Shown piece by piece: positions 6,758-11,377 of a stretch of 24,122 bases of DNA. The notes under the pieces were generated by a model, which had not been told where the DNA came from, did not search any database, and saw only the letters and a program-made list of their open reading frames with translations. Numbering within the stretch: the stretch's first letter is position 1; each line of letters opens with the position of its first letter. This DNA is from a phage. The translations under genes and the position numbers were made by a program. The stretch lies in assembly GCA_012086945.1 (NCBI GenBank), contig GCA_012086945.1_3922.1, one strand, 5' to 3'.

Positions 6758-6958
6758 ATGAAGATGAGAGTAAAAGACAATTTTAAAGTTATTGACCACC
6801 GTTTAGTGGAACTCTCATCTCTTTCCAATGAGGTAATGATTGAACGTCTTAAGAGAGTTGAATCACGAAGGAAAGAGATTGCAGATGAAATTCATGAACT
6901 GGACAAGATTGAAAATGGATTGAAGGCAGAACTACAACGAAGAGGTGCTAATGTCTAA
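6758..6958 (+). CDS. small hypothetical protein (66 aa), probable coiled coil
   Basis: Charged heptad-like sequence; stop overlaps the start of the primase-helicase gene. Confidence 0.45.
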   Translation: MKMRVKDNFKVIDHRLVELSSLSNEVMIERLKRVESRRKEIADEIHELDKIENGLKAELQRRGANV

Positions 6959-8936
6959 AGGTCGTAAATTGAAAGAGGCTGGTCAGTTTGTTGGTCATTG
7001 TGCATGTCCACGTTGTGGTTCATCAGATGCTGGTTCAATCTATCATCATGACGATGATTCTTATTCAATGACTTGCTTTAGTTGTAAAAAAGGTTTCCCA
7101 GAGTGGGATTTTGATAAAGGACAAATCGTGAGCACTTATTCTACTGGTTCAGACAATAAAAACCGCACTTTCCGTGGAATGGATTTAGACGATGTAAAAG
7201 AAAACCTAGAAGCAATGGACTTGAAAGATAGGAAGATTCCTGCAAAAGTCCTTGAACGCTTAGGTATCAAGGTTGACATTGACAGTGACGGTGAAATTGA
7301 TGCGCACTTCTATCCAACTTACAAACGTAATGAAGATGGTAAGTTAGAGCACGTTGGTTACCGTGTACGTCACCGTTACCCAGAAGACCATCCAAAAGAG
7401 CACCTACGTGGTAAGCTAAAAGACTTTTCAGGTGGTGTTGGAGACATTAAAGGTGAACTGGCAATGTTCGGTTCATGGATTGCTCCAGAAGGTGGTAACC
7501 GTCTATTCATCTGGGAAGGTGAGATGGAATGTGCGACAGCAATCTATATGACCTCTCTTGCGATTAAAGACAAGTCTCGTCGTAAGAATTACTGTCATGT
7601 ATCTGTTCCGTCAGGTGCAAACATCAAGTCTATCAAAGATAACTATCAGTACATCACATCATTTGATGAGATTTACTTGTGCTTTGATAACGATGAAGCA
7701 GGTGCTAAAGCTACCAAAGAGGCTGCTGGTATCTTACCTATTGAGAAGGTTCGTTTATTCCAGTATCCAGAAGGTGTAAAAGACCTTAATGAATGGTGGA
7801 CAAAGTTCTATAAAGAGAAAGACACAGTGCTTGAAGGGTTTAAGCAGCGTATCTACAATGCACCTCGTTATTGCCCTGCTGGTATCAAGAACTTTGCAGA
7901 TGGTTTTGAGGCAATGAAGAATCGTGGTCAGATTCCATTGATTCCTTTCCCAGAGTCTTTCGGGGATTTGAACAGACTGACTTATGGTGGTTATGGTTTA
8001 GGTGAGATTACGACTATTGCAGCACCATCTTCAGTAGGTAAGTCAGCTTACACTCGTGAGATGATTTATTCAGCTTGGAAAGAAACTGATTATAATATTG
8101 GTGTAATTCCTGTAGAAGATACTTACGAAGAACTTATGGAAATGCTCTGTGCAATCCACCTAAGTAAGCAGATTTCTGAGATTCCTTATGACGAACGTGA
8201 TTGGGATGAATTAAAAGGAGCACACGCAGAACTTTCAAAAGGTCGTCGTATCCACATTGTGGACCATCAAGGGGCTATTGACCAAGATAACCTGCTGGAA
8301 TTTGTTGACTATCTTGTTAACAGTTTAGATTGCAAGATTATCATTCTTGACCCTATTACGTTGGCTCTGTCACGTTCAGATACGGATGAAGAGGAAGTTC
8401 TGTCTGAATTATTGCGTCGTTGCAAACGCTACCAGTATGCACAGGTGAACGTCTGTCACGTTCGTAAGAGCGCAGGTGGTCAGAAAGCTAACTCTGAAGG
8501 TGGAGACATCTCTGAAGAGGATATTAAAGGTTCTGGTGCGTATTTCCAGATTTCTATGAACAACATTCTGTTAATGCGTAACAAGGTTGACCCAGACCCT
8601 GTTAAGAAAAACTTGACAAAAATCAAGTTAACTAAATGTCGTCGTCACGGTAAGTCAACGGGTATTGCTGGTCATACTTGGTACAATCCAGATACAGGAC
8701 GCCTCATCAAAGCATCTGGTTGTGGGGTTGACATTGATGGTGCAGCAGAAAATATTCGCCAACAGTTTGGTATTGGCGAAGCTGAAGACCATTACGATGA
8801 CTCTTTGCCACATTATGAGGATGAAGTGTTTGACCGTGAGACTGGTGAAGTCTATACTGAAGAGCAGCGTCAAAGCTCAACGATTCCACCTGTATTAAGT
8901 GAGGATGCAGATGACTGCCCATTCGAAACTGAGTGA
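6951..8936 (+). CDS. bifunctional DNA primase-helicase (T7 gp4-like)
   Basis: N-terminal zinc ribbon CPRCGSS...CFSCKK; TOPRIM motifs WEGEMECATAI and FDNDEAGAKATKEAAGILP; Walker A APSSVGKSAY; Walker B IIILDP; C-terminal KLTKCRRHGKSTGIAGHTW and acidic tail, all parallel to recalled T7 gp4. Start moved to ATG 6951 with GAGG upstream; the track start at 6945 is GTG. Confidence 0.9.
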   Translation: MSKGRKLKEAGQFVGHCACPRCGSSDAGSIYHHDDDSYSMTCFSCKKGFPEWDFDKGQIVSTYSTGSDNKNRTFRGMDLDDVKENLEAMDLKDRKIPAKVLERLGIKVDIDSDGEIDAHFYPTYKRNEDGKLEHVGYRVRHRYPEDHPKEHLRGKLKDFSGGVGDIKGELAMFGSWIAPEGGNRLFIWEGEMECATAIYMTSLAIKDKSRRKNYCHVSVPSGANIKSIKDNYQYITSFDEIYLCFDNDEAGAKATKEAAGILPIEKVRLFQYPEGVKDLNEWWTKFYKEKDTVLEGFKQRIYNAPRYCPAGIKNFADGFEAMKNRGQIPLIPFPESFGDLNRLTYGGYGLGEITTIAAPSSVGKSAYTREMIYSAWKETDYNIGVIPVEDTYEELMEMLCAIHLSKQISEIPYDERDWDELKGAHAELSKGRRIHIVDHQGAIDQDNLLEFVDYLVNSLDCKIIILDPITLALSRSDTDEEEVLSELLRRCKRYQYAQVNVCHVRKSAGGQKANSEGGDISEEDIKGSGAYFQISMNNILLMRNKVDPDPVKKNLTKIKLTKCRRHGKSTGIAGHTWYNPDTGRLIKASGCGVDIDGAAENIRQQFGIGEAEDHYDDSLPHYEDEVFDRETGEVYTEEQRQSSTIPPVLSEDADDCPFETE

Positions 8937-9192
8937 TAGTTACAAAAGAGAGGGGTTCACACCCTTCTTTGAAGAAAAAAGTTTGAATCAATTTCAAGCA
9001 GAGTGTTTGACAAAGATTGATAGGTTCTATATAATGCTCTACATGAAATGCGATGGAGAAGTTGAAATAGAAGAGCAGTTCCATCAAAGCATAATTACAG
9101 TCACCGTTACTCTACCTGAGCATAATATTGGTTGGCTATTTATAATTAAAGAAAATGTGTTTGAATATCAAGTATATCGGAGAATATTATGA
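8899..9192 (+). CDS. hypothetical protein, start uncertain (candidate ATGs at 8899, 8911, 9043)
   Basis: Overlaps the primase-helicase 3' end in another frame; its stop overlaps the next ATG as ATGA. Contains the consensus promoter at 9007..9035, so the real product may begin at ATG 9043. Confidence 0.35.
   Translation: MRMQMTAHSKLSDSYKREGFTPFFEEKSLNQFQAECLTKIDRFYIMLYMKCDGEVEIEEQFHQSIITVTVTLPEHNIGWLFIIKENVFEYQVYRRIL
9007..9035 (+). promoter_or_regulatory. sigma70-type promoter, perfect consensus (TTGACA-N17-TATAAT)
   Basis: TTGACA 9007..9012, 17-nt spacer, TATAAT 9030..9035, read directly from sequence. Confidence 0.6.
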
Positions 9193-9338
9193 AACACTCT
9201 AAAGCATTTGAAAAAGTTTTTGGGGATTCCTTAAAAGCCACTGCTGGAAAACCAGCAAAATACTATGAAGAGAAGCGTGTAAGAACTGGAAAAACTGCAC
9301 GTAAAGCAGCTTCTAAAGATAAGCACAACTTCCAGTAA
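9189..9338 (+). CDS. small basic protein (49 aa, MKHSKAFEKVFGDSLKATAGKPAKYYEEKRVRTGKTARKAASKDKHNFQ)
   Basis: ATG overlaps the upstream stop; GGAGA upstream; hand translated, below the track threshold. Confidence 0.35.
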   Translation: MKHSKAFEKVFGDSLKATAGKPAKYYEEKRVRTGKTARKAASKDKHNFQ

Positions 9339-9345
9339 TTAATGT

Positions 9346-9374
9346 TTGACAATAGAGTATCAACAAACTAGAAT
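9346..9374 (+). promoter_or_regulatory. sigma70-type promoter (TTGACA-N17-TAGAAT) upstream of the SSB gene
   Basis: TTGACA 9346..9351, 17-nt spacer, TAGAAT 9369..9374; about 37 nt upstream of ATG 9411. Confidence 0.5.
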
Positions 9375-9410
9375 TGGTACTCTTCATAAATTGAGATAGA
9401 GGTTTAAATA

Positions 9411-10268
9411 ATGTCTAAAGTTGTTAAAATGAAAGCTCCGGTAGAGAAATACAATGGCACTGAACGCCAAACTCTGCGATACCTGCTGAAAGATGTCTGG
9501 TTTTATTACCTGAACACTTCACCACGTCCGGGAAAAGGTAAGTCTATTGATAAGAAATTCCCAGGCAAAGACTGTAACTACAGCGTATCAATTCTGGCAG
9601 AAGACGGTAACAAACTGTTTAAAGAGTTTACTAAGTCTAAGAAAAATCCAGAAGGTTGGGATAAAGTCACTACTGAAGCAGTTGATGCAGACGACTTCGA
9701 AGAGAAGTTTGGTTGTAAACCACCTTTTGAAGCAGACACTTACTACATCTTGAAAGTAAGTCGTGCAGCAGCTTATAAAGATGGTGCTGTATGGACAGCT
9801 AAACAGTCATTCCCTGTTATGCTTATTGAAGAAGTAAATGGTAAGCGTGTAGCTGTTAAGCAGCCGATGAAGAAAATCAAAGCTCAAGCATCTGATAAAC
9901 ATGAAGATGATAAGAACTATGATGTAATTCATCCAGATATTGCAGTTGGTAACGGTTCTTTTGGTAGTGTGATTCTTTCTACTCACTTCTACACTTTTGA
10001 GAACAATGTTCTGACAAAACCTATTCAGGAACAGTTTATCATTGATACTCTTGTACCTTACACTGGTGGTAACGGTGCTAACGGTGAACCTGAACTGGAT
10101 GAAGACGAACTGGCTATGCTTGGTCTTGATGGTGTCGAAGATAACGGTGAAATCACTGAAGAAGACGCAACAGACCATAAATCTTCGAATGAGTTTGATG
10201 ATGGTGATGATGAAGATTTGCCAGACCCAGATGACGAAGAAGATGAAGACTTCGATACAGAAGACTAG
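9411..10268 (+). CDS. putative single-stranded DNA-binding protein (T7 gp2.5-like) with acidic C-terminal tail
   Basis: C-terminus DDGDDEDLPDPDDEEDEDFDTED; internal stretch IAVGNGSFGSV...LVPYTGGNG resembles recalled gp2.5 IIGGGSKLKV...LATFGGG; flanked by its own promoter and terminator. Confidence 0.5.
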   Translation: MSKVVKMKAPVEKYNGTERQTLRYLLKDVWFYYLNTSPRPGKGKSIDKKFPGKDCNYSVSILAEDGNKLFKEFTKSKKNPEGWDKVTTEAVDADDFEEKFGCKPPFEADTYYILKVSRAAAYKDGAVWTAKQSFPVMLIEEVNGKRVAVKQPMKKIKAQASDKHEDDKNYDVIHPDIAVGNGSFGSVILSTHFYTFENNVLTKPIQEQFIIDTLVPYTGGNGANGEPELDEDELAMLGLDGVEDNGEITEEDATDHKSSNEFDDGDDEDLPDPDDEEDEDFDTED

Positions 10269-10286
10269 TCTCTAAAAGTTACTTTA

Positions 10287-10314
10287 AAGCCCTGTACTTA
10301 GTATGGGGCTTTTT
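10287..10314 (+). terminator. rho-independent terminator candidate
   Basis: AAGCCCT...GGGGCTT stem followed by TTTTT, directly after the SSB gene. Confidence 0.5.
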
Positions 10315-10330
10315 CATATGGAGAGCCATA

Positions 10331-11377
10331 ATGGAGAAGTACACATTAACAAAGCTTCCCGATTCAGTTACACATGTTTTTATTGACTCTGACAGTATTG
10401 CCTATAAAGGTGCTTGTGTAGTTGAGAAAGCAAAATATAAATACGTCAATAAACTCACAGCAGAAGAGTCTGAGCCATTTGATAATGCGAAAGATGCTGC
10501 AAGATGGTTAGCAGACCAGAGAATCCTTGTGGAAGAGCTTGGCCTGACATTTGATGAAGATGAATGGGAAAGACAAACTTGGAAAGAAGCTAAGAGTGAA
10601 AAAGAAGCTATCATGGCTACTCAGCAGGTTCTTCAGGAATGGCTTAAGGTTGTTGGTAAAGAAAGAACTTGGGTAGGTTACTTAACAGAGAAGGGTGTAC
10701 ATAAACATAAAGACATTAAAGGTCTTGAGCACCAATATCAAGGTAACCGTAAAGATGCTGTCACACCAACACATTTAGTCGCTTGTCGTGAATACCTTCT
10801 GTCAAGACCAGAGTTCAAATTGATTCTTGATGGATTTGAAGCTGACTCTATCGTTATTGCTAAAGCTGAAAAGATGGGTAAAAAGGCTGCCTTAATGAGT
10901 ATTGATAAAGACCTTCGACAAGCTGAAGGTACTTACTGCATTGATATGACCTATGAAAAATCACCTTTAATTTTTATTGCTGATAACAACGTTGGTGAAA
11001 TTTGGGATTGCCCAATAAAATCAACACCAAAAGCTAAGAAGACAGTTGGGGTAGGTTTTAAATTTCTTTGTTATCAAGCTGTGGCTGGTGATAATGCAGA
11101 TAACTATTTTGGTTTAAAGGGCGTTGGTAAGGTTGCTGTAATGAAAGCCCTTGAAGGTAAAACTACTTACAAAGAGTGTCTTGATGCAATCTATGAACTT
11201 TATGCTAAGAAAGAGTCCTACACTTATGTCTCGTGGGATGGTCAAACAATTACCAGAACACCTTTAGAACTAATGCAGCAACACTTCTTCTTAGCTTATC
11301 AGGAAAGAAATAAGAAAGACGATTTTACTTTTGATAAGTATGGGTGGACACCAAATGTTAACTCAACAAACTCTTAA
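10331..11377 (+). CDS. 5'-3' exonuclease / flap endonuclease (T7 gp6-like)
   Basis: N-terminal acidic VFIDSDSIAYKG; helix-3-turn-helix-like AVAGDNADNYFGLKGVGKVAVMKAL; SIDKD motif as in recalled gp6 (ISCDKD). Confidence 0.7.
   Translation: MEKYTLTKLPDSVTHVFIDSDSIAYKGACVVEKAKYKYVNKLTAEESEPFDNAKDAARWLADQRILVEELGLTFDEDEWERQTWKEAKSEKEAIMATQQVLQEWLKVVGKERTWVGYLTEKGVHKHKDIKGLEHQYQGNRKDAVTPTHLVACREYLLSRPEFKLILDGFEADSIVIAKAEKMGKKAALMSIDKDLRQAEGTYCIDMTYEKSPLIFIADNNVGEIWDCPIKSTPKAKKTVGVGFKFLCYQAVAGDNADNYFGLKGVGKVAVMKALEGKTTYKECLDAIYELYAKKESYTYVSWDGQTITRTPLELMQQHFFLAYQERNKKDDFTFDKYGWTPNVNSTNS

Follow-up and report, generated by a model that had tools for sequence, protein, structure and literature searches.

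A candidate internal sigma70 promoter of full consensus sequence within a small gene of a Felix O1-like phage

The stretch of phage DNA analysed here (contig GCA_012086945.1_3922.1, 24,122 nucleotides; hereafter the window) carries a primase/helicase gene followed on the same strand by three genes, 109, 110 and 111 in the numbering of phage wV8, and by a rho-independent terminator (Table 1). Over positions 8000 to 10500, upwards of 250 myophages of the Felix O1/wV8 type (Ounavirinae, Felixounavirus) match it at 94–97% identity, and members of Suspvirus and Mooglevirus at ~75%. Judged by these matches, the window belongs to a Felixounavirus, a Felix O1/wV8-like coliphage, and subtracting 61758 from a wV8 coordinate gives the corresponding window coordinate. 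Felix O1-like phages are widely used in the typing and biocontrol of Salmonella and E. coli. The next gene in the local order after the terminator is a T7-like exonuclease gene. A minus-strand ORF present in the old Felix O1 record (8707..9087) was set aside, as stops break its frame in nearly all relatives.

Table 1. Genes, promoter elements and other features of the locus, in window coordinates.
Feature	Coordinates	Strand	Remarks
Primase/helicase gene	6945/6951..8936	+	3' end overlapped by gene 109 in another frame
Promoter-like site upstream of P1 and in tandem with it (Felix O1 'P102')	8824..8858	+	AAGTGT-TTGACC-N17-TATACT; inside the 3' end of the primase/helicase gene; PMC3185647
Gene 109 (wV8 numbering)	8911..9192	+	93 aa; phrog_4982; hosts P1
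P1 extended -35	9001..9012	+	GAGTGT + TTGACA (hexamer 9007-9012); matches family motif RAGTKKTTGAC
P1 -10 hexamer	9030..9035	+	TATAAT; separated from the -35 by 17 nt
Hypervariable stretch of gene 109	9036..9130	+	Starts directly after the -10; nucleotide diversity 0.12-0.21 against ~0.03 around it
Predicted transcription start	9041..9043	+	A9043 most likely, A9041 alternative; start-site rules of PMC5730371 applied to GCTCTAC-A
ATG, Met45 codon of gene 109	9043..9045	+	Proposed leaderless start; in frame; 49 codons to the stop
gp110 (gene 110)	9189..9338	+	49-aa basic protein; phrog_4424; first complete gene 3' of P1
P2	9341..9374	+	AATGT-TTGACA-N17-TAGAAT; intergenic, before gp111
gp111 (gene 111)	9411..10268	+	285 aa; ends in an acidic tail; single-stranded-DNA-binding protein by prediction, T7 gp2.5-like
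Rho-independent terminator (t104 of Felix O1)	10289..10314	+	GCCCTGTACTTAGTATGGGGCTTTTT; annotated in wV8, XTG1 and Tribble; listed in PMC3185647

Gene 109 hosts the candidate promoter that is the subject of this work, which we call P1. An initial annotation of this DNA had placed the promoter within an ORF overlapping the 3' end of the primase/helicase gene, and both the location and the overlap, in a different frame, are confirmed. It had given that ORF as 8899..9192; the frame stands, but the start is most likely ATG 8911 and not GTG 8899. The sequence GAGGA lies 5–6 nt ahead of ATG 8911, and the same start is annotated in wV8, Tribble, Moogle and Sf14. This frame is the only one that is open in all relatives and lineages, with no stops against 7–15 in the other frames, and its dN/dS of 0.35 is the lowest of the three (0.62 and 1.10 for the others). 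Interrupted copies are nonetheless found (L014, L024, L025 and P0067–P0070), and the 93-residue product splits into 70 clusters at 90% identity. From this pattern of substitution we regard gene 109 as a real but weakly constrained gene.

Within gp109, the N-terminal half, encoded upstream of P1, is the best-conserved half, and codons 45–80 form the most variable stretch of the whole region (pS 0.32, dN/dS 0.26). The AlphaFold (AF2) model is that of a single compact alpha/beta domain (pLDDT 84, pTM 0.74), with a strand at residues 17–20, a helix at 25–46 and four strands between residues 52 and 90; Met45 stands at the end of the single helix. Pfam, NCBIfam and the PHROG functional labels suggested no function for gp109, and no fold match was found in the PDB.

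The two genes that follow are under much stronger constraint by the same measure, with a dN/dS of 0.025 for gp110 and 0.006 for gp111, both values indicating very strong purifying selection. The TGA of gene 109 (9190–9192) overlaps the ATG of gp110 as ATGA, and the overlap is conserved; gp110 also has its own Shine-Dalgarno sequence, GGAG, 6 nt upstream. Searches for gp111 against Pfam, NCBIfam and PDB sequences were negative. Its AF2 model (pLDDT 80) combines a beta-rich core with a tail that is disordered and acidic and ends in EDFDTED, and when this model was compared with the PDB using Foldseek, the best 9 matches were all gp2.5-family or uncharacterised phage-related proteins. Matches to 4klk, 1je5, 5odj, 5odk, 5odl and 4jg2 have E-values of 9e-5 to 1e-2 and probabilities of 0.96–1.00, at modest TM-scores of 0.37–0.56 on the target. 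The model therefore predicts that gp111 is a T7 gp2.5-like single-stranded-DNA-binding protein (SSB). Similar to the T7 gene 2.5 family (1je5; Enc34 SSB, 5odj; DUF2815, 4klk) in predicted fold, gp111 also resembles it in having an acidic C-terminal tail with an aromatic residue, ending ...DDEEDEDFDTED, and in its placement among T7-like primase/helicase and exonuclease genes. It differs from that family in being larger, at 285 aa, and in lacking detectable sequence similarity.

P1 reads TTGACA-N17-TATAAT at 9007..9035, a full match to the sigma70 consensus as first annotated; direct reading of the sequence, a consensus scan and a pattern search all agree on this. It is the sole 12/12 match in the window. 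From base composition, perfect matches with a 17-nt spacer are expected 0.013 times per 24-kb window, counting both strands, and 0.048 times per 88-kb genome. When one mismatch is allowed, the window holds two sites against 0.30 expected, the second being the intergenic site at 9346–9374, and eight sites of at least 11/12 are seen per genome where ~4 are expected by chance. Among natural promoters that have been characterised, a 12/12 consensus is known rarely or not at all. P1 is on the same strand as gp110 and gp111 and lies ~146 nt ahead of the gp110 start. Another promoter-like sequence at 9161–9190 (TTGAAT-N18-TATTAT) was rejected: its predicted start falls within gp110 and its -10 is lost in Mooglevirus.

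The hexamers of P1 are preceded by a sequence that recurs elsewhere in these phages. We defined a Felixounavirus family with an extended -35 as RAGTKKTTGAC followed by TAnnnT 15–18 nt after the -35, co-oriented with the genes. In the wV8 genome RAGTKKTTGAC occurs 7 times where 0.85 occurrences are expected (the maximum in 300 simulations was 4), and all seven are followed by TAnnnT at 15–18 nt, against 0.10 expected. Four of the seven sites lie between genes, and each of the seven points the same way as the genes around it. P1 is one of the seven, and the intergenic ones include a site before rIIB, one in the divergent 45/46 region (Felix O1 'P41'), one in the tRNA cluster ('P45') and one before gene 95. 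P1 itself reads GAGTGTTTGAC-A-N17-TATAAT and falls within the family as defined. The same GAGTGTTTGAC is found in the 8824 site (AAGTGTTTGAC) and is nearly matched by P2 at 9341 (AATGTTTGAC), so that three direct copies of the 10-mer, at 8825, 9002 and 9341, lie within 520 nt on the coding strand. Besides this 10-mer, there are no notable repeats or iterons at this locus. A 14-nt complementarity between 9000–9013 and 9187–9200 is at chance level and shows no co-variation in Mooglevirus.

The three tandem sites differ in how widely they are kept. P2 is present in every member of the Ounavirinae examined, including Pectobacterium phage Wc4, Hafnia phage Zyzzx and Erwinia phage phiEa104, and in most Felixounaviruses the hexamers and spacing of P1 are identical to those of this universally conserved neighbour (TTGACA-17-TAGAAT). 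In Mooglevirus the -10 of the 'P102' site reads TACACA and so lacks T-7, which makes this site less secure than P1. Both small genes have homologues in Wc4, which has no P1, so that P1 is dispensable for the module; Zyzzx and phiEa104 lack both small genes and keep P2 alone. As P1 is absent from these three phages, it is an addition within the clade of Felixounavirus, Suspvirus and Mooglevirus.

Could P1 simply be a by-product of coding? On this explanation the hexamers would follow from the gp109 helix E-C-L-T-K-I-D-R-F-Y-R/I-M-L and would have been perfected by a neutral substitution, with polymerase binding incidental or occluded by elongating polymerases. Several observations are in keeping with it. 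The conserved bases of P1 fall in the best-conserved helix of gp109 (ECLTKIDRF), so that part of their conservation can be explained by protein constraint together with a preference for T-ending codons. Compared across genera, 9 of the 12 hexamer positions agree, which does not exceed the ~75% average of the region, and the sister-genus site, TTGACT-17-TAAAGT, scores 9/12, a level that is frequent by chance. The ~4 near-consensus sites expected per genome and the lack of the site in Wc4 point in the same direction, and a neutral change is plausible given the dN/dS of gene 109 and its broken copies.

Against this, we compared 32 ORF109 sequences from Felixounavirus, Suspvirus and Mooglevirus over 223 registers. 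Although gene 109 is poorly conserved, with only 31% of its columns invariant in this set, the register at 9007 is the only one of the 223 in which TTGAC, T-12, A-11 and T-7 are all invariant across the three genera. The three -10 bases outlast replacements at all three codons that contain them: codon 40 encodes Y, G, C or A, codon 41 R, I or K (and S in one more protein cluster, known at the protein level only) and codon 42 M or V. Leu33 is constantly TTG, a codon that serves only 15% of leucines. A by-product of coding would also leave aside the 8-fold enrichment of the extended motif with a -10 at seven of seven sites, and the tandem repetition of the 10-mer on the coding strand. From established promoter biochemistry, a site of 11–12/12 with a 17-nt spacer would be expected for physical reasons to be bound by the sigma70 holoenzyme and to fire, however it arose. 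We therefore consider an origin as a mere coding by-product unlikely, and read P1 as probably a promoter and a member of a recognisable phage promoter family, a reading that rests on the family motif, on register-specific conservation and on the site lying on the correct strand.

The perfection of the -10, on the other hand, is not a trait of the group. An 81-nt query containing the 12/12 form of P1 is matched at 100% in only one of 122 GenBank relatives, MET-P1-301, which is nearly identical to the window, and the TATAAT copy was found in no IMG/VR contig. A pattern scan of IMG/VR yielded no contigs beyond those already included. Every Felixounavirus among the 29 other distinct relatives first examined from GenBank and IMG/VR has TTGACA-17-TAGAAT, and Suspvirus and Mooglevirus have TTGAC(T/G)-17-TAAAGT; relatives thus score 9–11/12, with the spacing unchanged. 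TATAAT arises by a G-to-T change that turns AGA into ATA, the rarest isoleucine codon, and Arg41 into Ile (R41I), while a sister allele in public read assemblies carries an ATC codon and hence TATCAT. The claim of a perfect consensus accordingly holds for the window and fails for the group, since it depends on one private substitution that only MET-P1-301 shares. On comparison of these alleles the perfect TATAAT appears to be a recent one-base up-variant of the usual TAGAAT. The third position of the -10 is the least conserved base of the hexamer, and for this reason the up-variant is probably a modest one, of a promoter that was already strong. As a natural single-base promoter variant, it lends itself to direct comparison with the alleles TAGAAT and TATCAT. 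The CDS annotated in MET-P1-301, which covers only the C-terminal part of gp109, is artefactual: that record has three single-base deletions in A-runs. It is therefore not evidence for a 49-residue product.

Where would transcripts from P1 begin? In E. coli the modal start lies 7 bp after the -10, a purine following a pyrimidine on the non-template strand is preferred, and pyrimidine-rich discriminators move the start downstream (PMC5730371). In P1 the disfavoured C9042 occupies position 7, and the favoured A9043, with a C before it, occupies position 8; the discriminator, GCT, is rich in pyrimidines. All P1 variants retain an A at position 8 with a pyrimidine before it. The initial annotation had predicted a start coinciding with ATG 9043, and these rules do favour A9043, so the transcript could begin with AUG. 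That ATG is in frame with the 8899/8911..9192 ORF, also as annotated, and translation from it up to 9189 would give 49 residues (MKCDGEVEIEEQ...). The lambda cI mRNA is a known case of a leaderless message.

The fuller proposal of that annotation, in which transcription starts exactly at A9043, a leaderless mRNA yields a 49-residue C-terminal isoform of gp109 and the ATGA overlap feeds ribosomes into gp110, seems to us improbable. It draws some strength, beyond the favoured start and the conserved overlap, from codons 45–49 (MKCDG), which are nearly invariant within the genus though they open the hypervariable stretch, and from the dN/dS of codons 45–80, which indicates that the frame is translated. 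Moreover, in E. coli a 5'-terminal AUG ahead of a leadered gene is often translated (PMC4965119). However, Met45, conserved within Felixounavirus apart from an M45I replacement in cluster P0003, gives way to Asn (AAC) in Suspvirus and Mooglevirus, two genera in which the promoter and its C-A start context persist. Translation of the frame is explained equally well by full-length gp109, whose conserved N-terminal half cannot be made from P1 transcripts. In the AF2 model residues 45–93 amount to a bare four-stranded sheet that has lost the helix and the first strand of what is predicted to be a single compact domain. Were transcription to begin at 9041 or 9042, the mRNA would gain a leader of 1–2 nt, and an in-frame Met codon at the start site has a chance of ~2–3% per intragenic promoter, which is not extreme. 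The leaderless 49-residue product thus has poor support, though some leaderless translation may take place. As for translational coupling to the 9189..9338 ORF, the ATGA overlap is real, but gp110 has no need of coupling because it has its own GGAG.

A more elaborate version would treat the locus as a nested gene: dual-mode mRNAs from A9043 would give a 49-residue beta-sheet isoform corresponding to the hypervariable half, ribosomes terminating on it would tune translation of the highly conserved gp110, and TATAAT would be an adaptive up-mutation in this lineage. We give this version little credence. The nearest parallel comes from E. coli mRNAs in which a 5'-terminal AUG precedes a Shine-Dalgarno-led gene (5'-uAUG/5'-uORF mRNAs); such mRNAs can be translated in both modes, and translation from the AUG can affect the downstream cistron (Beck, Fleming and Janssen 2016, PMC4965119). 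If the start is A9043, the P1 transcript would share with these a 5'-terminal AUG and a 49-codon frame followed by Shine-Dalgarno-led gp110. It would differ in having the tail of a larger gene as its 5' ORF and not a free-standing uORF, in that its start site is a prediction, and in that the AUG is absent from the sister genera.

P1 might instead prime an RNA that is not a message. This could be a small regulatory RNA, or a transcript that forms an R-loop or serves a replication origin next to the replication genes, like those at the origins of T7 and T4. Its position between the primase/helicase and SSB genes would suit such a role, as would the fall in G+C to 0.32–0.33 over 9025 to 9470. Yet origin-like composition signals are missing around P1, with no GC-skew inflection at this locus, and the promoter 10-mer is the only repeat of note. 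Downstream of P1 there is neither a stable structure (the fold of 9043–9215 has z = -0.73, not significant) nor any terminator between 9043 and 10289, the first being that at 10289–10314, and the sequence there is an open reading frame under purifying selection. We therefore regard a non-mRNA role as highly improbable.

The account that we prefer, to which we assign a probability of about 0.72, is that P1 is a functional internal sigma70 promoter in gene 109, one of three in tandem, for gp110 and gp111. Host sigma70 RNA polymerase would read P1 inside this small, weakly constrained gene. Three tandem promoters (~8830, 9007 and 9346) bearing the signature AGTGTTTGAC would then stand at the end of the primase/helicase gene, with P1 adding transcripts of gp110, P1 and P2 together adding transcripts of gp111, and both ending at the 10289–10314 terminator. 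Transcription from P1 would start most likely at A9043 or A9041, and the ~146 nt to the gp110 ribosome-binding site would serve mainly as a leader that happens to coincide with the 3' half of gene 109. Full-length gp109 would come from longer transcripts initiated upstream, with translation from ATG 8911. The activity of P1, its start site and the genes that benefit from it are thus predictions from sequence and context, and on these P1 is most likely an internal booster promoter for gp110 and the gp2.5-like SSB. A gp2.5-type SSB is a protein needed in bulk, and it makes coherent sense for its gene to follow strong promoters in tandem. The contribution of P1 may nonetheless be small, because P2 already stands directly before gp111.

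What would such a promoter mean for the biology of these phages? The family with the extended -35, to which P1 and P2 belong, offers a concrete and testable map of entry points for the host polymerase, and the locus indicates that the SSB gene has dedicated tandem promoters within the replication operon. It also holds a warning for annotators, namely that strong promoters may lie within small 'hypothetical' genes.

Previous work on Felix O1 provides the closest setting for P1. The Felix O1 genome has no gene for an RNA polymerase or for a known sigma modifier, and the authors of its genome paper proposed host-type promoters, listed only five candidates and stated that the timing of transcription was not understood (PMC3185647). 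In the Felix O1 RT-PCR series gene 104 (gp111) appears at 25 min, and genes 102 and 103 were outside the series. Related phages have been reported to depend on TTGACA-type promoters (PMC3185647; PMC5587285). A search of the accessible literature yielded no mapped 5' ends, RNA-seq or reporter measurements from any Felixounavirus, the promoter table of UAB_Phi87 has no entry at the P1 locus, and among the GenBank matches listed none has a promoter annotated at its position. P41, P45 and P102, three of the promoters predicted for Felix O1 (Whichard et al. 2010, PMC3185647), belong to the same genus and carry the same RAGTKKTTGAC signature as P1, and P102 is the neighbour of P1 at window position 8830–8858. 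In contrast to our analysis, the Felix O1 list considered only intergenic sites, and P1 and P2 are not in it (PMC3185647). The P1 instance is therefore new to the Felix O1 literature and the GenBank annotations inspected, while the kind of element is familiar.

Virulent coliphages such as T4 (early genes), T5 and T7 (A1–A3) have promoters that depend on host sigma70, some of which lie inside upstream coding sequence in their compact genomes. P1 resembles these host promoters in its near-consensus hexamers, its 17-nt spacer and its presumed use of the unmodified host polymerase, and also in its phage-specific extension upstream of the -35 and its tandem arrangement, co-oriented with the genes. 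It differs from them in lying wholly within a translated gene, in reaching 12/12 in one lineage, and in that its activity is, for now, a prediction.

The promoter inside gene 109, P1 (TTGACA-N17-TATAAT), belongs to a family that shares the extended −35 signature RAGTKKTTGAC, whose sites in the wV8 genome (sequences L040 and L041) are listed in the table. The intergenic copies in wV8 are often preceded by an A-tract, and the Felix O1 and wV8 papers hold no description of this promoter family. The extension may act as a proximal UP-like element or define a phage-specific promoter class.

At the intergenic promoter P2, upstream of gp111, the −10 box and the start site are flanked by an inverted repeat, which we compared with the equivalent sites in the relatives L006 and L005. 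Its arms read AGAGTA...TACTCT in Felixounavirus and GGAGTAC...GTACTCC in the sister genera Mooglevirus and Suspvirus, such that the two arms covary between these groups. Because its first arm precedes the P2 start site, the repeat looks less like an RNA hairpin than like a putative operator, acting as DNA, to which a dimeric regulator would bind.

Coordinates of the features discussed (window positions unless stated otherwise)
Feature	Position	Strand	Remark
RAGTKKTTGAC sites	wV8 genome: 2292, 8706, 23796, 27328, 61030(-), 70582, 70759		Extended −35 family
Minus-strand ORF	8707-9087	-	126 aa; the original Felix O1 record lists a counterpart
Primase/helicase C-terminus	8900-8936		...EDADDCPFETE
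A-run deletions in MET-P1-301	8944, 8975, 9233		Single-base
Hypervariable stretch	9036-9130		Nucleotide diversity 0.12-0.21
gp110	9189-9338		49 aa, lysine-rich
P2 inverted repeat	9355-9384		
gp111	9411-10268		
gp111 C-terminus	10230-10268		...EEDEDFDTED

Against a genus-wide background of ~96% identity, part of gene 109 is hypervariable; nucleotide diversity elsewhere is ~0.03. For this stretch pS is 0.32 and dN/dS is 0.26, a few old haplotypes occur (GGVEVEEKFHH..., GEVEIKEDFHQ..., GEVAIKEDSYQ...), and clustering of the 93-aa gp109 at 90% identity yields 70 clusters. The pattern may reflect balancing selection, or selection from host interaction, acting on the half of gp109 that forms the beta-sheet. 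Purifying selection on the neighboring gp110 is very strong (dN/dS 0.025), and the conserved core of this protein, SKAF..VFG.S..AT.GK.A.....KR.RTGKTAR, also occurs in the Pectobacterium phage Wc4.

Several records of this region call for caution. The closest GenBank relative, MET-P1-301 (PV700625.1), has, relative to the window, three single-base A-run deletions, probably sequencing errors, that disrupt genes 109 and 110 in this record; as a consequence, its gene-caller annotation at gene 109 shows just a 52-codon CDS starting at the ATG within the −10 box. The minus-strand ORF is spurious, as stops interrupt it in almost all relatives. The Felix O1-like region also occurs in two records labelled "Campylobacter" and in "Staphylococcus phage SA1" (GU169904.1), with protein identities of 84% for gp109 and 98% for gp111, suggesting that these records are chimeric or mislabelled.

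Records label gp111 "hypothetical" throughout, and "methyltransferase" in one Yersinia phage record; modeling predicts a T7 gp2.5-like single-stranded-DNA-binding protein. Its tail and that of the primase/helicase share acidic character and an F-x-T-E motif, which is retained in gp111 of Wc4 (GFQTE) and the Erwinia phage phiEa104 (PFKTE). In T7, the tails of gp4 and gp2.5 dock on the DNA polymerase, and the acidic F-x-T-E tails of the primase/helicase and gp111 are, by analogy, reminiscent of this pair.
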